The translations under genes and the position numbers were made by a program. The notes beneath the pieces are model-generated. The model worked only from the letters and a program-made list of their open reading frames with translations. It had not been told where the DNA came from and searched no databases. Of a stretch of DNA of 64,000 nucleotides, positions 1-61,016 are shown piece by piece. Source of the DNA: Bdellovibrionales bacterium (GTDB taxonomy: Bacteria; Bdellovibrionota; UBA1018); NCBI GenBank assembly GCA_018266355.1, contig JAFEAP010000029.1, positions 400,909 to 464,908 of the forward strand, given 5' to 3'. Each line of letters opens with the position of its first letter. Position 1 is the stretch's first letter.

Positions 1-332
1 TCGTAACCGGCGTCGGCGTAGACTTTGTTGATGCATTCGAGGGTCGCGCCCTTGCTGCACGCTTTCGCGGCTTTCGCCCGATCGTAACCGGCGTCGGCGT
101 AGACGGTGTCGATGCACTCGATCGAGGCTTTCCCGCAGGCGATCGCGGCTTTCGCGTGATCGTAACCGGCGTCGGCGTAGACCTTATCGATGCATTCGTC
201 GGTCGCGCCCGCGGCGCAGATCTGCTCGGCTTTCGCGCGGTCGTAACCGGCGTCGGAATAGACTTTATCCACGCAGTTCGCGGAGGCGGAAGCGGCGACG
301 ACGAAGGAGAGGACGGCGATGGTCTTTTTCAC
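1..332 (-). CDS. Secreted Cys-bracketed tandem-repeat protein (3' end of gene runs off the window; N-terminus present)
   Basis: GTG start at 332-330 with GAGGAG SD 6 nt upstream. N-terminus VKKTIAVLSFVVAASASA is a signal peptide. It is followed by four or more ~27-aa repeats of the form C-I-D/N-K-V-Y-A-D-A-G-Y-D-R/H-A-K-A-A-x-A-C (about 81-nt DNA period). Stop of the upstream gene (336-338) lies 3 nt from this start, suggesting coupling. Confidence 0.6.
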   Translation of the reverse strand, partial: MKKTIAVLSFVVAASASANCVDKVYSDAGYDRAKAEQICAAGATDECIDKVYADAGYDHAKAAIACGKASIECIDTVYADAGYDRAKAAKACSKGATLECINKVYADAGY

Positions 333-335
333 GGC

Positions 336-824
336 TTACTCCTCGAGGATGTCTTTTTTCGGGACGCGCTTGAAGACCGCGCTGTCGCAAGGCTTACCGC
401 TGCGGGATTTGCAGAGTTCATCGAAAAGGTCCATGCCGAAGCGGATCGTCCGGCCGCGCCCGAGGCGGATGTCGCCTTGAAGCTTCGCCGCGACCTCGGG
501 CTTCATCGGGTATTCGGCCGCGGTGCCTTCGTCGTCGACGTAACCTTCCGGGAAGCGGTATTGCATCCGGAAGTTCCCTCCGTCGCAGAGGATGCGGTCG
601 GTGGTGAGGCCTTGGTTTTCCTTTTGTTCCGGAATCTGCTGCATCTGCACGCCGACGCAGGATTTCGGGATGTTCACGAAGGTGCCGACATGCGTTTCCA
701 GGTCGACGTGCTGCCAGAGCCCAGCGATCTTCGCGCAGTCGCACGGTTTCGCGGCCGTAACTTCGGCGAACGCCGGAACGGCGAGGAGCGAGAGGAGGAG
801 GGAAGCGAGGAGTTTCGTCTTCAT
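336..824 (-). CDS. Secreted hypothetical protein (163 aa)
   Basis: Internal ATG of ORF 336..950 gives MKTKLLASLLLSLLAVPAFA, a signal peptide with AFA-E cleavage. Contains several Cys. The overlapping plus ORF 156..851 is antisense. No family recognised. Confidence 0.6.
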   Translation of the reverse strand: MKTKLLASLLLSLLAVPAFAEVTAAKPCDCAKIAGLWQHVDLETHVGTFVNIPKSCVGVQMQQIPEQKENQGLTTDRILCDGGNFRMQYRFPEGYVDDEGTAAEYPMKPEVAAKLQGDIRLGRGRTIRFGMDLFDELCKSRSGKPCDSAVFKRVPKKDILEE

Positions 825-847: not shown

Positions 848-1561
848 TTAACGGGAGCGGTAGACGGCTTGGTCGAGGCCGATGCCGTAGATCGTGCCGT
901 TCGGGGTGACGGAGATGTTCGTCACCGCCGGGTCGGTCGCGGTCGCCCACGTGCCGTAGCTGCGATTCTTATAGATCGCCTGGTCGAGGCCGACACCGTA
1001 GATGTCGCCGTTCGGCGTGACGGAGATGTTCGTCACGGCGGGTTCGGTCACGCGTTCCCACGTGCCGTAGGCGCGGTTCTTATAGATCGCTTGGTCGAGA
1101 CCGACACCGTAGATGTCGCCGTTCGGAGTGACGGAAATGTTCGTGACGGCGGGTTCGGTCACGCGTTCCCAGGTGCCGTAGGCGCGGTTCTTATAGATCG
1201 CTTGGTCGAGGCCGATGCCGTAGATATCGCCGTTCGGAGTGACGGAGATGTTCGTCACCGCGGGTTCGGTCACGCGTTCCCAAGCGCCGAAGGCGGTCGT
1301 CCGGTAGACGGCCTGGTCGAGGCCGATGCCGTAGATATCGCCGTTCGGAGTGACGGAGATGTTCGTCACCGCCGGTTCGGTCACGCGTTCCCAAGCGCCG
1401 AAGGCGGTCGTCCGGTAGACGGCCTGATCGAGGCCGACGCCATAGATCGTGCCGTTCGCGGTGACGGAGATGTTCGTCACGGCGGGCTCGGTCACGCGCT
1501 CCCAAGCGAAGGACGAGGTCGTGGCCAGGCCGAGGACGAGCGCGGTCAGAAGGAATTTCAT
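848..1561 (-). CDS. Secreted tectonin / tachylectin-like 6-blade beta-propeller repeat protein (lectin-like)
   Basis: Start at internal ATG (aa 13 of ORF 848..1597) gives signal peptide MKFLLTALVLGLATTSSFA. Six ~40-aa repeats follow: W-E-R-V-T-E-P-A-V-T-N-I-S-V-T-P-N-G-D-I-Y-G-I-G-L-D-Q-A-I-Y-K-N-R-A-Y-G-T. This matches the W..ISV..G.IYG..D..IY pattern of tectonin-type propeller blades. Confidence 0.65.
   Translation of the reverse strand: MKFLLTALVLGLATTSSFAWERVTEPAVTNISVTANGTIYGVGLDQAVYRTTAFGAWERVTEPAVTNISVTPNGDIYGIGLDQAVYRTTAFGAWERVTEPAVTNISVTPNGDIYGIGLDQAIYKNRAYGTWERVTEPAVTNISVTPNGDIYGVGLDQAIYKNRAYGTWERVTEPAVTNISVTPNGDIYGVGLDQAIYKNRSYGTWATATDPAVTNISVTPNGTIYGIGLDQAVYRSR
851..1504 (-). repeat. 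Six near-identical 120-nt tandem coding repeats (tectonin-like blades)
   Basis: The DNA in 880-1500 shows a 120-nt period with only a few substitutions per copy (e.g. gtcgaggccgatgccgtagat...gtgacggagatgttcgtcac recurring). Consistent with recent expansion or concerted evolution. Confidence 0.8.
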
Positions 1562-1636
1562 GGGTGCGGATATAACGCAACGCACTAATTCTGTCACTCG
1601 ATATAAATATCTATTTAAAACGGATAGTTATATCGA

Positions 1637-3871
1637 CTACTCCGCGATCAGCTCGGCGCAGGTTTTCACCGGGATCTTCCGCGCGACGGCGTCGCCGTAG
1701 TCGTCGAAACCGAGATTATCCGCCGCCGACTTCATGATCGCGCAGACGGCGTCTTGGGCCGTTTTCGAGGATTTCAAGACCGCCTTCACCCGCGGGAGCT
1801 CGAGTGCGGCGTAGAAACCGGCGAGGTCCACGTCGTTCGAGACGGTGACCGAGGCGTGCTGTTTGAAAAGCATTTCGATGAAAGCCGGGTCCGATCCGGC
1901 GTTCTGCGCGAGCGAGAGGAAGCCGTCGAAGACACGGCTCGTGATGAGCACGTTCGGTTTCGAACGGGTCGTCGTGAATAGGTTCGCCACCGCTTCGGGG
2001 GAGAGTTTCGTCTCGCGGAGGGCGTAGATCATCTCGTCCGGACGGCGTCCGTCGGCGCGGGTGAGGAGGTAATTCAAGATGCGCTTCTGGTTCTCGTCGC
2101 CGCGGATCGGTTCGATCGCGAAGTAGCGCTCGATACCGTACCAGAACGGATGGTTCGGCGTGAGGTAAACGTCGACGAACGCGGTTTCGAGCAGGTCGAG
2201 CCCGGCGCGCATCGAATGGAGCGAGTCGGCGTAGGACATCTGGAGGGACGGCGTCGCCGCGCGGACCATCGCCGCGAGGGATGCCGCGGTCGCTTCGTCG
2301 GTCGCGCCGAGATTCGCCATCGCGCGGCCGCAGACGGGGCTGAGCGGGTTCAGGGGGAACTTCTCGCACTGGGAGCGAAGGCGGGCGAGGAGCGCGCGGT
2401 CGGCGTCCGTCGGTTCGAGGATCGCGGGACCGTCGACGAAGAGCGAGGCGAGGAGGTCGGTCGTCTGCCCGGACGAGATCGAGCGGTCCTTGTAGGCGTC
2501 GGCCGCGCGCGCGCGGAATTCCGGGTAGCGGGCGAGCCCGGTACAACGCATCGCCTGGACGGCGGACGCGACGTTGAAGTGGAACGGCTGGATCTTCGCG
2601 ACGACCGCCGAGAAATCGATCTGGTTCACGCCGGCGACGTTCAGCGAGCAAATGGTGTCGCCGAGTTCGGTCTCGAAATAGGGAGCGGCGAAGGCCGAGT
2701 CGACGAGCTGATAGATCGTCCGGACGAGGTCTTCGCGCGTGATCCACCCCATCAGGTGGGCGAAGCGCATCCACTCGATCTTCGTGACCGCGGTCTTCAC
2801 GTCGGCGATCGTCTCGAGGAGGATCTTTCTCGCGTTCGCGTTCGACTGGAGGCGGGCGAAGATCGCCGACTGGGTGGTCTTGATCTCGCGGATGTTCGCG
2901 CGCATGAAGTTTTGGATCGAGGGAAGGAGCATGAGCACCTTCTCGCTGTTCAGCATCACCTCGACGGAGAGGAGTCGGTCGGCGAGGGGGATCGACTTGT
3001 CGAAAAGCGCGCAGATTTGGATGTGGAACGCGTATTCGGGATCCTTCGGATCGAGGCCCGAGCACTGGGTGAAGGACTGACCCTTCATCGCGGACCCGAG
3101 CGCGGCGTTCGTTTCCGTCTTCGCGGAGGTCCCGCGGTCGACGATCGAGTCGAAGTGCTTCGTGAAATCGCCGAGTTTCCGCATGTAGTTCTCGAGGATC
3201 GGCTTCAGATCCTTCCCGAGCGGACTCGTCGAGAAGAACCCGTAGATGTACGGAACGCCCGAGAAGGCGCGCTGGACCTTGCCGCGGTTGTCCTGACCGA
3301 AAGCGCCGTAGCGATCCTCGACCACGCGGCGGGCGGTATCCGGCGAGTAACCGTCGTCGACGAGGACTTGGTAGTACTCGGCCGGCGTGCGGTGATCTTT
3401 TTCCTTCGTCGCGAGCGCGTTGCAGCCGAAGAGGTAAACCTCGCGCGGATTTTCCATGATGCCTTTGCAATCCTGGGCGCAAGAATGGTTCTCGAGCTCG
3501 TTCAGTCCGAGCGTATAACCGCTCGATCCGAAGAAACGGCCGGCGAAATGGCCGGAGACGACGTCGATGTCGCACTTGTAGTTCTTCTTGCAGGCGGCGT
3601 CGAACCAACCGGACTTCGCGCCGTTCGCCGCCGGTTCGGTGAGCTCGACCAGATCCCACTCGGCGGGATTCAAGTACTGGGTGAAGACGCCTTTTTCGTC
3701 GGACGAGTTGATCGTGATGAAACAGGCGAGGCGTTTCCCCTCGCGCGGGATGAAGACCGACGACGGGATCGGTTCGCGCATCTCGTAACGGCCGGAGTTC
3801 CGGGCGTGACCGAGGGAAAGGGCGGTGGCGGCGATTACGGACAGGGCGACGAACTCGCGGGGAAAGCGCAT
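1637..3871 (-). CDS. Large secreted hypothetical protein (744 aa)
   Basis: ORF 1637..3952. Internal ATG at 3871 follows GAGGAG SD and starts signal peptide MRFPREFVALSVIAATALSLGHA. High coding GC3. No recognisable catalytic motif. The overlapping ORFs 1716..3659(-) and 2150..4039(+) are off-frame/antisense artefacts. Confidence 0.6.
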   Translation of the reverse strand: MRFPREFVALSVIAATALSLGHARNSGRYEMREPIPSSVFIPREGKRLACFITINSSDEKGVFTQYLNPAEWDLVELTEPAANGAKSGWFDAACKKNYKCDIDVVSGHFAGRFFGSSGYTLGLNELENHSCAQDCKGIMENPREVYLFGCNALATKEKDHRTPAEYYQVLVDDGYSPDTARRVVEDRYGAFGQDNRGKVQRAFSGVPYIYGFFSTSPLGKDLKPILENYMRKLGDFTKHFDSIVDRGTSAKTETNAALGSAMKGQSFTQCSGLDPKDPEYAFHIQICALFDKSIPLADRLLSVEVMLNSEKVLMLLPSIQNFMRANIREIKTTQSAIFARLQSNANARKILLETIADVKTAVTKIEWMRFAHLMGWITREDLVRTIYQLVDSAFAAPYFETELGDTICSLNVAGVNQIDFSAVVAKIQPFHFNVASAVQAMRCTGLARYPEFRARAADAYKDRSISSGQTTDLLASLFVDGPAILEPTDADRALLARLRSQCEKFPLNPLSPVCGRAMANLGATDEATAASLAAMVRAATPSLQMSYADSLHSMRAGLDLLETAFVDVYLTPNHPFWYGIERYFAIEPIRGDENQKRILNYLLTRADGRRPDEMIYALRETKLSPEAVANLFTTTRSKPNVLITSRVFDGFLSLAQNAGSDPAFIEMLFKQHASVTVSNDVDLAGFYAALELPRVKAVLKSSKTAQDAVCAIMKSAADNLGFDDYGDAVARKIPVKTCAELIAE

Positions 3872-3901
3872 AGAGACACTCCTCGGGGGGCTCTGCCTAT
3901 A

Positions 3902-3917
3902 GCGAGGGACGTGCCAG
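3902..3917 (-). promoter_or_regulatory. Candidate sigma-54 (-24/-12) promoter TGGCAC-N5-TCGC upstream of the 744-aa secreted protein gene
   Basis: Minus-strand sequence cTGGCACgtcccTCGCt has GG and GC in the canonical 10-nt register (consensus TGGCAC-N5-TTGCW, one mismatch). It lies about 30 nt upstream of the start at 3871. A sigma-54-type activator (ntrX-like) is encoded at 57705. Confidence 0.3.
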
Positions 3918-4031
3918 CGCGGACGGCGCCGAGTGCCCGAAATGACGAGCATTTTCGGACCCCTTCGTTTCCCGACCGTCTAAGGTTTAGACGGTCGAAA
4001 CCGGAGCTGAACGGCGATTTCCGTTTTCGAT

Positions 4032-7000
4032 TTATTTGAACGTCGCCAAGCAGGCGGCGTCGGCCCCGTTCGGAGATACGGTCCAGGAATGACTGAACGT
4101 TCCCGTGGCGTTCACGATCCGGAAAAGCGATTGGCCGGCTTCCCGGGAGGAGTTGTCCCGTTCGCTCGCGGCGAGATTCCAGTTCAGATTGTCATAGGTC
4201 CAGGTCGCCGTCGGATTTCCCCCGCCCGCCGCGGTCGCCACGAGGAACTCGTCGGAAGCGGTCGTCGCCGCCGTCGTGCCGGTCGATACGATGCCGACCG
4301 ACGTATCGTCGTGATTGCATATCGTCCGATCAAGCGGATTCACCGTATCCAGACCGGAGATCTCTTGGGCGACGGTCTGCGGATATCCGCTCGTGGTGAC
4401 GGTGAGCGTAAGGGGGCCCGAGGCGACGATGTTTTTCGCGTAAAATATGCTCGCGCCCTGGCCGATCGAATTCGCATCCGCTGCGGCGGGAACGTACGTG
4501 TTTCCGGCGCTGTCGGTGACTGTCGTCGCGTTCCCCGCCCATGTCCAGACGGATACGACGATCGTGTTACCGGCGGTCGCGTCGAAGGAGAACCGCGGAT
4601 TGACCGAAGACCCGAATCCGCCGTTCGCGTAGGTGCTCGTTTGAACGACCCTTATCGGAGGGGCCGCGACCGGATCCGATCCGCTGGCGAGGAACTTGAT
4701 CGGGTCGATCCATCCGTTTCCGGACACCCATCCCCAGCATTTCACGGCACCGCTCGTGAGCGCGGCGCACACGTGATAATCGCTGAGAGACGTTTGGAGA
4801 GCGTTCGTCACGCCGCTCACGACGTTGTCGATCGGGTCCGAAGGGTTCTGGTATCCTTCGAGTCCGAGAATCCCGTGCCCACCGTCCCCCCAGCAGCGGA
4901 TGAGACCGTTCGAAAAAGTCGCGCACGTCGTATCTTCGCCCGCCGAAACCGAAGCGACGTCCGAAAACCAATTCACGTTCGCCGGAAGGTCGTGACCGGT
5001 CGTCGTTCCGTCGCCCAACTGGCCGCGGCCGTTCGCACCCCAGCAGCTCAAAGTCCCGTCGCTGATCAGCGCGCAAGTGTGGTTCAGACCGAGTGCCATC
5101 CCGACGACGTTTCTCAGGCCGACGACGAGAGCGGGTGCCGGACGATCCGTTTGGGTACCGTCGCCGAGTTTTCCGTTCGTGTTCTTGCCCCAGCATCGCG
5201 CCGTCCCGTCGGTTAGGACCGCGCAGGTGTGTTGACCGCCGCGGTGGGAAGCGTAAATCGAGGCGATGTCGGAGAGGGGCACCGTGAAAGGGACGAGCTG
5301 ATCGACGGTATCTCCGGTTCCGAGTTGTCCGACGTCGTTCTTGCCCCAGCATTTGGCAGTGGCGTCGGCTAGTCGCGCGCAGAAATAAGCCCGTCCTCCG
5401 GTGATTTGGGTCGCGTTCGCGATGCCGCTGACGGTGGTGACGTTGAAATTCATGGAAATGTCGTTATCGCCCCGCTGCCCTACGTCGCCGGCTCCCCAGC
5501 ATTTGATCGTGCCGTTCGCGAGCAGGGCGCAAGCCGTGTGCTCGGCGGTCGCGATTTGGATCGCCGTCGTAATGCCGGCGATCGTTTCGGGCGTGGTGGC
5601 GTATCCCGGTTGATTCACAGGCCCGAGCTCACCCTGGTTTCCCGTCCAACCGAAACACTGAACGGCGCCGTTCGCGAGCCGTGCACACTCACCCGATTCG
5701 GTGGTCTCGACTTGGACCGCGTTCGCGACGCCCGGGTAGGCCTGGGCGGGCACCACGTCTTCGGTCCCGAAATCGCCGTGATGCCCTCCGGCCGGGCCCC
5801 AGCATTTCGTCCGGTCGTTTTCGATCACGCAACGATCCGCGTATCCGGTAAGGCTGATCGCGGAAGTGATTCCACCCACCGCCACCGGCGTGAGGCTGGA
5901 CGAGAGGTTGCCGGTGCCGAGCTCGCCGATGCCGTTGTCGCCCCAACACTTGACCGAGCCGTTTTGAAGGAGAGCGCAAGTCGAGAGGAAGCCGGGATTG
6001 GCGAATGCCGCCGCCGTAATTCCGGTGGGTATTCCCGTCGCGTAATCGTCCGAGAGGGTCGAACCGTTCCCGAATTGTCCGAAGGAATTGTCGCCCCAGC
6101 ATCGCATCGACCCGTCGGTCAGCACGGCGCAGGACGTATTATATCCCATCGCGATTTGTGCGACGCCGGTCAGATCGGTGGCACCGTCGATTTTCACGTA
6201 GGCCGGAACGATCGAGCCGCTAAAGCTGCCGTTTCCGACGTAACCGCCTCCCCAGCATTTAACGCGCCCGTCGGCGATCAAGGCGCAGGCTCCGAAAGCG
6301 CCCATCGCGACCCGGACCGCGCTCGTGACTCCGGATACCGCCACCGGCGCGCATCGGTCGGTCGTCGTTCCGTCGCCGAGTTGGTGATTGCCGTTGCTTC
6401 CCCAGCACTGGACGGTCCCGTCGGCGAGTACCGCGCAGGCCGAATTTCCCATGGTCGCCGCGGCGATATCGACCGCCGTCGAGATCCCGGAGACGGTGAC
6501 GGCGTTCGGAATGGAGTCCGCGCAGTTTCCGTCACCTAACTGTCCGTTCGCTCCCGCTCCGGAGCATTGGACGGTGCCGTCGGAATTTCGCATGCAGAAG
6601 AAATTTTCGCTCCCTGAGATTTGGGACGCGAGAGAGACGTTCGTCAGCGGATAAGGCGTGCCGGTTCCGCCCCACATTCCCGAAACGGCTGCTCGACCGT
6701 CGGCGTATCGCACGGCCATTCCGTTATGGGTGAGGGCGACGCCGGCGAGCGGCGATGGATTCGTGCCTTCGAGGCTGAGCAGTAATCCGATGGAACCGCC
6801 TACCGCGCAGGAAAATCCGAGCGTCGTTCCCGGTCGTACTCCGGTGGCGATCGGATGCCCGCGAACGACGGCGGTGCAATATCCGTTGACCGGAACGCTG
6901 ACGCCGCAGTCCGTGGAAACAAGATCGAAATCGGTCGAAGAAAGCGTCGGCGAGGAGCAACCGGTGGCGTCCGCCGTTCCGTAATTGGTGAATCTCACGG

Positions 7001-59111: not shown

Positions 59112-59849
59112 TTACCGACAAGCCGCCATTCGACGGAAGATCGCGCGGTCGGTTTCGTATTCTTCCGCGCTCGCGCCGTCGAGGTGGAGTTTCGCCATTC
59201 CGTTCACGAAGAAGTCTTTCGCGGGGGCATCGCCCGCGAGCGCGAAATCCTTGATCGCGGCGACTTCGGATTCGTCGAGGGATTTTCCTTCCCCGGCGCG
59301 GACGATCATGTCCTTCACCTGACGCGGTTCCCATTTCGATTTTCCGGTCGGGAGTTTGAAGATGCAGGTTTCCTTCGCGGCCGCGCATTTTCCGCCCGAG
59401 CAAGCGAACGCCTGTCGAAACGCCGGGACCCAGTTCTCGCCGACGTAGATCATGTCCTCGACGACGAGCTTTTCTCCTTCGACGTAGACGAGCGCGCGTT
59501 CGAGTTCGCCCTCGGTGTGGATCGGTTTCGAAGCCTTCCCGGCCGCGTCGACCGAGAGGATGTCGAATCCCGTGGCGAAGACCTTGCCGGGATAGCGTTC
59601 GTCGTCGGCCGAGTCGCCGCAAACGATCAGTCGCGAAGGGGCGGTGCCGACGGCGACGAGGGGCTGGCTTCCGGAGAGGGAGGCGATCCCGCCTGGGCAT
59701 TCCCCGGGTTTGCCGGAGGGAGCGGGGGCGGCGGCCACCGCGACCGGCGGCGGAGGGGCGACCGGAGAGGGGGACTCCGCCGGTTTCGTGCAGGCGGAGA
59801 GGGAGAGGATGTGGAGGACGGAGATCGTGGCGAACGCTCGGAATTGCAT
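59112..59849 (-). CDS. Lipoprotein, Pro-rich linker (unknown)
   Basis: Lipobox LSLSAC. PVAPPPPVAVAAAP linker. 245 aa. Confidence 0.55.
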   Translation of the reverse strand: MQFRAFATISVLHILSLSACTKPAESPSPVAPPPPVAVAAAPAPSGKPGECPGGIASLSGSQPLVAVGTAPSRLIVCGDSADDERYPGKVFATGFDILSVDAAGKASKPIHTEGELERALVYVEGEKLVVEDMIYVGENWVPAFRQAFACSGGKCAAAKETCIFKLPTGKSKWEPRQVKDMIVRAGEGKSLDESEVAAIKDFALAGDAPAKDFFVNGMAKLHLDGASAEEYETDRAIFRRMAACR

Positions 59850-59942: not shown

Positions 59943-60455
59943 ATGAAAACTTTCTTCGTCTTGATGAGCGTCTTGGCCTCGATCACTGCGGCGTCCGCCG
60001 GAATCTCCGCTGCGAAGCGCGCGGCGATCGTTTCCCGCGCGGAGACCTATTTTCTCCTCGTCGGGAACGGGCAGCTCGCCGGTCCGGCCGAGTGCACGCC
60101 GCCATCGACCCAAGACTGCATCGTCTTCGTCGCCGGTTCCTATCCGTCGTCGGACGAGCGAATCACGGCCGCGAAGGCTTGCGTCGGCAACTACGGCGTG
60201 ACTTGCGCGAAGTGGGCGGCGGGTTCGTATCCGTCGTTCGACGAACGCGTGACCGCCGCCCGCGCCTGCCGCGATAACCGCACGACCGAATGCGCGGTTT
60301 TCGTCGCCGGTTCCTATCCGTCCTCCGACGAACGCCTCACCGCGGTTCGCGCGTGCGGGAACGCCGATATCGCGTGCGTGAAGTACGTCGCGGGTTCGTA
60401 TCCGTCGTTCGACGAACGCGTCGCCGCCGCGAAGTCCTGCTCTGACCAGAACTGA
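59943..60455 (+). CDS. Secreted Cys-bracketed tandem-repeat protein (second member of the family seen at 1..332)
   Basis: Signal peptide MKTFFVLMSVLASITAASA. Four ~30-aa repeats of the form C-x-x-F/Y-V-A-G-S-Y-P-S-S/F-D-E-R-V/I-T-A-A-K/R-A-C. Confidence 0.65.
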   Translation: MKTFFVLMSVLASITAASAGISAAKRAAIVSRAETYFLLVGNGQLAGPAECTPPSTQDCIVFVAGSYPSSDERITAAKACVGNYGVTCAKWAAGSYPSFDERVTAARACRDNRTTECAVFVAGSYPSSDERLTAVRACGNADIACVKYVAGSYPSFDERVAAAKSCSDQN

Positions 60456-60461
60456 GCGCCG

Positions 60462-61016
60462 TTACGGCGCCATCGTCAGGTAGTAGTAGCAGTAGTAGGA
60501 CGCGTAACCGTCGTCGATCGTCGCGATCTTCTCGACCCAGTAGTCCCCGCTCCGGCGGAGGTAGGACGCCGAGTTCGGGCCGATGACGGCCATCACGCTA
60601 TTTCCGGACGCGCAAACCGGGAACCAGGTGCTTCCCGGAAACGAGAGTCCGCGCGAGGAGAGGTGGTCGAAGTATCCGAGATCGTCGTCCCAAACGGTCT
60701 GGATCGAGGTCGCCGGATCGATCGGCCCGTTTCGGCCGCCGCCCGTGTGGACGAGGTAGGCCGCGCCTTTGACCGCGTCCTCGTGGGAGCGGTCGAAGCA
60801 CCGGCCCGCCATCCCGAGGGTGCCCGCCGCCGGGAAGGAAGGCATCGTCCCGACTTGGAAAAGCGCTTCGAGGCGGTCGAAATTCGCGCTGTTCGGAGCT
60901 TCGAACGAGGCGGCCGACGCTTCGGCCGATTTCACCTCGGTCGCCCGGGCCTCCGAGGCGAACGAGATGCCGAGCGGCAGGGAAATCATCAGGGCGATCA
61001 GGGGCGTGGAACGCAT
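60462..61016 (-). CDS. Secreted hypothetical protein (184 aa), Tyr/Cys-rich C-terminus
   Basis: Internal ATG of the 880-aa artefact ORF. AAAGGA SD. Signal peptide [23 protein letters not shown]. The rest of ORF 61017..63104 is antisense to proS. Confidence 0.55.

Follow-up and report, generated by a model that had tools for sequence, protein, structure and literature searches.

Within the stretch of DNA that we analysed, 64,000 nucleotides long and hereafter called the window, two genes encode small, apparently secreted proteins made of cysteine-bracketed repeats: gene 1 at the left end (positions 1-332) and gene 2 towards the right end (positions 59943-60455, plus strand). The preliminary description had located the pair at both edges of the window. 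Both genes do exist, but gene 2 starts about 59.6 kb from gene 1 and ends 3.5 kb inside the right edge, and the pair is not clustered. The strand of gene 1 had also to be corrected, since this gene is read from the minus strand and is incomplete at its left end. No third copy appeared when the whole 64-kb window was scanned in six frames with the repeat profiles.

Gene 1, truncated on the left by the start of the window, has 110 visible codons. Its start codon is the GTG at positions 332-330, with an RBS-like GAGGAG located 6 nt upstream. This ribosome-binding site is provided by the last codons of the preceding gene, which encodes a 162-aa protein and whose TAA stop is separated from the GTG of gene 1 by a gap of only 3 nt; for this reason, the two genes are probably translated as a pair. 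The translation opens with a putative signal peptide, VKKTIAVLSFVVAASASA (positions 279-332), which was read by eye and carries an A-S-A cleavage motif. The repeats that follow are CVDKVYSDAGYDRAKAEQIC (repeat 1, C-x18-C, positions 216-275), CIDKVYADAGYDHAKAAIAC (repeat 2, positions 135-194) and CIDTVYADAGYDRAKAAKAC (repeat 3, positions 57-116), all on the minus strand, as is the partial repeat 4, CINKVYADAGY..., visible in the translation at positions 1-35 and cut by the window edge. Gene 1 therefore contains at least 3.4 repeats of the form C-x18-C, joined by linkers of 6-8 residues, with cysteine spacings of 18/7/18/6/18/7. The same periodicity is seen at the DNA level, where Tandem Repeats Finder detected 3.4 copies with a period of 81 nt (27 aa), 75% matches and a score of 281.

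Three genes on the same strand stand close together, and gene 1 closes the row. The first of the row (848-1597, minus strand; 848-1546/1597) encodes a putatively secreted protein in which a 37-aa unit recurs almost unchanged about 5.8 times (period of 111 nt, 89% matches); its match to Pfam Tectonin (E=1.6e-21) indicates a beta-propeller, lectin-like repeat protein. The middle gene (336-824, minus strand) encodes the 162-aa protein, which contains cysteines, is likewise predicted to be secreted and has no match in Pfam or NCBIfam. The relatives of gene 1 lack both the tectonin gene and the 162-aa partner gene; in particular, no counterpart of the latter was found beside P0026 or P0022. Beyond this row, a 771-aa ORF (1637-3952, minus strand) gave no Pfam match at E≤0.01.

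Gene 2 is complete and encodes 170 residues, identical to the NCBI protein JST04_15925, from a metagenome-assembled genome of a Bdellovibrionales bacterium. Its putative signal peptide, MKTFFVLMSVLASITAASA (positions 59943-59999), also read by eye, ends with A-S-A, and is followed in the AlphaFold2 prediction by an N-terminal helix at residues 23-41. A lone cysteine, C51 (positions 60093-60095), which we call C0, precedes the first repeat cysteine by 7 residues. Four C-x20-C repeats come next: CIVFVAGSYPSSDERITAAKAC (C59-C80, positions 60117-60182, with helices predicted at residues 57-64 and 70-79), CAKWAAGSYPSFDERVTAARAC (C88-C109, positions 60204-60269), CAVFVAGSYPSSDERLTAVRAC (C117-C138, positions 60291-60356) and CVKYVAGSYPSFDERVAAAKSC (C145-C166, positions 60375-60440). 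They are connected by linkers of 6-7 residues, which results in spacings of 7/20/7/20/7/20/6/20 from C51 onwards, and Tandem Repeats Finder reports a period of 87 nt (29 aa), 2.6 copies and a score of 237. Relatives of gene 2 were collected to a number of 20, of which 18 entered the family alignment. The aligned sequences are 40-64% identical to gene 2 and keep all four repeats in register. C51 is invariant across this family and raises the cysteines of mature gene 2 to nine; eight of these nine are invariant in the alignment of 18 sequences and the ninth is nearly so.

Gene 2 is placed between a gene for an NtrC-type response regulator, which comes first, and the genes proS and pyrF. The order ntrY-ntrX-gene 2-proS-pyrF is retained in the closest relative (contig L013) but not in more distant ones, and we read it as inherited synteny and not as a functional link. 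Between the regulator and gene 2 there is an ORF of 245 aa (59112-59849, minus strand), for which Pfam gave no match and whose beginning resembles that of a lipoprotein (...ILSLSAC); it is missing from L013, where the gene 2 orthologue comes directly after the regulator. On the other side, an ORF of 184 aa that opens with a signal peptide (60462-61016, minus strand) converges on gene 2, leaving 6 nt between the two stops; many Tyr and Cys residues are present at its C-terminus, and Pfam gave no match for it. L013 and L004 both have a small minus-strand ORF at this place; neither the L004 one nor the one beside P0008 is similar to the 184-aa ORF. When conserved neighbours were sought in seven contexts, none was kept across the family, and promoter and terminator scans gave nothing above shuffled sequences. 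Class II aminoacyl-tRNA synthetase genes are found near both repeat genes; the enzymes are different (GlyRS vs. ProRS), and the resemblance was set aside as coincidence.

A second assembly, GCA_039810405.1, matches the window around gene 2 at 99.9% (contig L001) and probably represents the same organism. It carries a shorter version of gene 1 (P0021, contig L002, positions 790-1002), which encodes 70 residues with two repeats and is followed by a glycyl-tRNA synthetase gene. P0021 is the closest relative of gene 1: the first 35 residues of the two proteins are identical, and the sequences diverge from a junction located within the conserved GGTTACGACCGCGCGAA stretch. The tectonin repeat region differs between the assemblies as well, with 96.4% identity as compared to 99.9% at the gene 2 locus. 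The difference between P0021 and gene 1 may reflect either a real deletion of repeats or an assembly collapse. If contig L002 gives the true 3' end, gene 1 of the window would contain at least five repeats and be followed by glyQS.

The relationship between the two genes was evaluated at the level of families. Eight relatives of gene 1 were collected and aligned, and the gene-1 family counts nine members. The two proteins compared directly by BLASTP gave E=3e-4, whereas hhalign between the gene-2 alignment and the first gene-1 alignment gave a probability of 92.6% and E=4e-7, with 73 columns in register. The profile built from gene-2 relatives only recovered the gene-1 relatives at 11-44 bits, and the one built from gene-1 relatives recovered the gene-2 relatives at 17-57 bits. 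The alignments of these cross-hits span about three repeats and include both ends of the proteins, namely a C-x7/8-C arrangement before repeat 1 and AAKACGG at the C-terminus. As a control, the cysteines were kept fixed and all other residues of the mature protein were permuted; in none of five tests did any of the 500 shuffles reach the observed score. For example, gene 2 scored 27.0 bits against the gene-1 profile (shuffles 0.4 ± 2.7), and gene 1 in the same kind of test scored 16.5 bits against the gene-2 profile (shuffles -2.2 ± 2.7).

These family-level profile comparisons, backed by shuffle controls, show that gene 1 and gene 2 are homologous and belong to one family, as had been proposed. 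The alignment of repeats between the two genes is significant at this level and over about three repeats. Profiles of single repeats of gene 1 and gene 2 gave no cross-hit; in single-repeat hhalign only the second half of the unit aligns (ERxxAAKAC vs. DRAKAAxAC), with a score that was matched by 1 of 300 cysteine-fixed column shuffles. The failure of single repeats, together with the success of several, points to a kinship that is distant and visible only across several repeats. The scheme C-aromatic-A-G/D-Y-acidic-R-AAKAC, which had been suggested to be common to both proteins, is real, but not as a gap-free match: the loop between the helices needs a two-residue gap (VYADAGY--DR vs. VAGSYPSSDER).

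The opposite view, that the genes are unrelated and resemble each other through convergent, alanine-rich, cysteine-periodic low complexity, or that the ORFs are not genes, could appeal to the silence of the single-repeat profiles, to the modest pairwise BLASTP value and to the score of only 13.6 bits that gene 1 of the window obtains against the gene-2 family profile. It is largely refuted, and we find it barely credible, considering that the multi-repeat matches are reciprocal and in register up to the ends, that no cysteine-fixed shuffle equalled them, that intermediate subfamilies bridge the gene-1 and gene-2 types, and that each ORF has conserved homologues on other contigs.

To define the extent of the family, the two types were merged into one profile, which was run with HMMER over 1.84 billion protein representatives. 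With E≤1e-3 the search returned 114 clusters, of which 51 passed ≤1e-10 and 21 passed ≤1e-30; all representatives are between 54 and 248 aa long. Nearly all of the 133 proteins inspected follow the same cysteine rhythm: the spacing within the repeat is 17-25 residues, the linker is of 6 or 7 residues in 276 of 321 cases, usually 7, and there are one to five repeats per protein, most often four. The consensus derived from 454 units is [ED]-C-[VI]-x-[FYW]-V ... R-x-x-A-A-[KR]-A-C-x-G. Many subtypes occur, such as CVEWVYQGSASREESARAC and CIDYMKDY..DR.KAA..C, and nine proteins (P0079, P0092, P0099, P0102, P0111, P0117, P0118, P0124 and P0133) have an extra cysteine pair inside each repeat. In these double-pair subfamilies the internal spacings are 4/5/11 or 4/7/12, and a protein of 150-250 residues may contain as many as 18 cysteines. 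P0041 is peculiar in having an additional lipoprotein signal and an unrelated N-terminal domain with four cysteines.

Most of the relatives are unnamed metagenome proteins. Those that bear the name of an organism all come from metagenome bins of Bdellovibrionales, Pseudobdellovibrionaceae or Bacteriovoracia, and a scan for the gene-2 type over one genome per GTDB species, with two type-specific peptide patterns, found it in two species, both Bdellovibrionales. The proposal of a lineage-specific family thus holds for all organism-named relatives, which belong to Bdellovibrionota, the phylum that includes predatory bacteria. The absence of a known family, also claimed beforehand, was borne out by searches in Pfam and NCBIfam and by PDB sequence and fold searches, none of which gave a significant match. 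For gene 1, gene 2 and ten diverse relatives alike, Pfam and NCBIfam yielded only sub-threshold noise. One apparent hit, of P0067 to Tudor_4 (E=1.3e-8), was discarded, being driven by the repeats with no single stretch passing. A literature search found no description of the family. This family of 27-30-aa repeats is real, undescribed and, wherever the taxon is named, so far observed in Bdellovibrionota bins only; it comprises at least 114 sequence clusters with neither a Pfam or NCBIfam model nor a solved relative. The secreted proteins of predators matter for predation, yet they are poorly annotated, and the finding is chiefly a cataloguing and structural-genomics result.

The structure of gene 2 was predicted by AlphaFold2 from the alignment of 18 sequences, with a mean pLDDT of 85.6 and values above 93 throughout the repeats. 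The model contains eight helices arranged in four pairs (57-64/70-79, 87-93/99-108, 116-122/128-137 and 143-150/156-166). In each unit, the first cysteine is located in the first turn of helix 1 and the second just past the C-terminal end of helix 2. The same helix pairs were obtained for P0022, a relative of gene 1, from three sequences only and with pLDDT of 76-84 in the repeats. The helix pairs in both models suggest that each repeat is a short alpha-hairpin, one helix-loop-helix per repeat, and in this respect the prediction agrees with the disulfide-closed hairpin of the preliminary description as far as its hairpin part is concerned. A stacked, mini-solenoid packing of the hairpins may be deduced from secondary structure and pLDDT only. 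Foldseek gave no match in the PDB at E≤0.001. The two models share the same weak fold matches, 5cwg and VP35, which fits a common architecture.

The cysteines presumably form disulfides, and for their connectivity two models were considered. In the first, which is the one put forward in the preliminary description, a bond between both cysteines of a repeat closes the hairpin; in the second, as in Hcp and COA7, the last cysteine of a repeat pairs across the linker with the first cysteine of the next. We lean towards in-repeat pairing, which we hold to be roughly twice as probable as pairing across the linker. Exactly two cysteines per repeat and no extras are found in 35 members. Both cysteines of the same unit are absent from repeat 2 of P0041 and, as read from its sequence, from repeat 4 of P0075, whereas a scan of the family units found no case of joint loss of the two cysteines that flank a linker. 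In the cysteine-loss scan, 478 units proved intact, two had genuinely lost a single cysteine and one had lost both; the single losses (P0018 and P0056) match neither model neatly, and in-repeat pairing is backed by just two co-loss events. In addition, divergent members hold the in-repeat spacing while their linkers lengthen to 14-46 residues.

Pairing across the linker, on the other hand, is favoured by the length of the linker, the most constant feature across the family, and by the cysteines that flank the repeats. In 63 members a cysteine is present within 16 residues upstream of repeat 1, often at about 7 (6-10), and in 42 members an extra cysteine follows the last repeat; these cysteines favour the second model because only there do they have a partner. 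If in-repeat pairing is correct, gene 2 retains an invariant unpaired cysteine, which is unusual in an exported protein. However, either model leaves an unpaired cysteine in most members, gene 2 included, and one extra cysteine, before the first or after the last repeat, is carried by 91 of the 133 members. This recurrent odd number of cysteines calls for an explanation.

Taken jointly, these data are best accounted for by Sec-exported, cysteine-stapled helical-hairpin repeat proteins that serve as mini alpha-solenoid binding scaffolds, a reading to which we assign a probability of about 0.6. Export through the Sec pathway, in line with the secretion proposed earlier, is suggested by the typical signal peptide that both proteins appear to possess, in which K or KK precedes a hydrophobic segment and A-S-A comes last. 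Once the signal peptide is cleaved, the mature protein would be a row of one to five, usually four, helix-loop-helix units, each bracketed by two cysteines and joined to the next by a linker of 6-7 residues. In the oxidising periplasm the cysteines would form disulfides that staple the hairpins, the first and the last cysteine of each repeat most likely pairing together, and the stapled hairpins could then assemble into a rigid miniature alpha-solenoid. Such a protein would not be an enzyme; it would rather work, either periplasmic or extracellular, as a stable scaffold for binding, on which the residues conserved in the loop (G-S-Y-P-S-x-D/E-R in gene 2 and D-A-G-Y-D/N-K/R in gene 1) might create a repeated binding ridge. 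The binding function itself is a guess by analogy with other alpha-repeat proteins. A disulfide-stapled helical scaffold so small, and probably very stable, may be of interest to protein engineers.

The closest analogues that we could identify are the cysteine-rich proteins HcpB and HcpC of Helicobacter together with human COA7 (PDB 1KLX, 1OUV and 7MQZ), the Hcp proteins and COA7 being known disulfide-bridged alpha/alpha repeats (PMC1941758, PMC8892353). The likeness is real at the level of design. As in those proteins, the family would consist of tandem alpha/alpha hairpins with a cysteine pair on each; it appears from its sequences to be exported, and the Hcp and COA7 proteins are exported or reside in an oxidising compartment; they too are thought to be binding scaffolds, the role that we propose by analogy. 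The C-x7-C spacing from one helix to the next and a short AKAC-x7-C motif are further points in common. It differs in the length of the repeat (27-30 aa, as compared to 34-36 aa), in the odd cysteine count of many members, in the evidence on pairing, which leans to bonds across the hairpin and not across the 7-residue turn, and in the lack of any Sel1 HMM, PDB-sequence, hhalign or structural match.

These resemblances could mean that the family branched off from the Sel1-like repeats (SLR/TPR clan) of the Hcp/COA7 type and became shorter and strongly diverged; in it, C-x7-C disulfides would staple the turn between helix 2 and helix 1 of the next repeat. The linker of 6-7 residues in 276 of 321 cases equals the C-x7-C of HcpC, the bonded cysteines of COA7 are short C-x7-10-C pairs (PMC8892353), hhalign pairs AKAC-VGNYGVT-C of the gene-2 family exactly with AKAC-DLNYSNG-C of HcpC, and the cysteine upstream of repeat 1 in 63 members would have a partner only if pairing occurs across the linker. 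Against this, tests of Sel1 membership failed. Pfam hmmscan gave no Sel1 (PF08238) or TPR match in any of the 12 members tested, with a cutoff of E≤1 for the two genes of the window and of E≤0.1 for the ten diverse members; the gene-2 family profile had no match at E≤10 among PDB sequences, a library that includes HcpB, HcpC and COA7 (1klx, 1ouv and 7mqz); the hhalign comparison with HcpC reached a probability of only 0.3% over 14 columns; and the family models showed no fold similarity to SLR structures. Sel1-like repeats are also longer, 34-36 aa (PMC1941758), and two repeats have lost their own cysteine pair while no linker pair was lost together. We therefore regard a Sel1-like origin as doubtful. 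A functional role of the cysteine row, as a ladder at one helix end, a free-thiol relay, a linkage between chains or a Cu/Zn binding site, is unlikely. The single extra cysteine of 91 out of 133 members, invariant in the gene-2 family with its nine mature cysteines, would be in keeping with it, as would the predicted antiparallel hairpin, which would put all the cysteines at the same end, and the redox activity of COA7 (PMC8892353). However, the sequences contain neither CxxC nor any other motif known for redox chemistry or metal binding, the extra cysteine is missing from 35 members, no gene of the thioredoxin-fold, Dsb or metal-handling kind is consistently kept beside the repeat genes, and the proposal is speculative.

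A bolder version of the cysteine ladder may be envisaged, in which the family would represent a new disulfide-stapled mini-solenoid fold, so far limited to Bdellovibrionota, with a thiol that migrates along the ladder or cross-links chains. A single free thiol is postulated there in view of the odd cysteine count of most members, and its migration would proceed by successive thiol-disulfide exchange. We consider this very unlikely; if it were true, the protein would serve as a redox relay, or polymerise covalently, in the envelope of the predator or at the interface with the prey.

The preferred reading, a stapled mini-solenoid scaffold, may also be set beside other alpha-helical repeats. Fold matches with Z below 5 were obtained with the designed repeat proteins DHR10 (PDB 5CWG) and C2HR1_4r (PDB 8EOV), which, unlike the family, are synthetic, contain no cysteines and have no sequence kinship with it. 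Solenoids of the TPR, HEAT and ankyrin type are similar in their tandem helix-turn-helix arrangement, in the variable number of repeats and in the lack of catalytic residues; in contrast to them, the family has a shorter, cysteine-stapled repeat with no profile match, and its proteins are tiny, stand-alone and apparently secreted. In a single case, from which we claim no association, a distant member of the family with five repeats of the CIDYMKDY type (P0048, contig L012, positions 6001-6702) is immediately followed by a tad/flp pilus locus, which contains genes for a Flp pilin, a prepilin peptidase, RcpC, a secretin and CpaE/CpaF-like ATPases.
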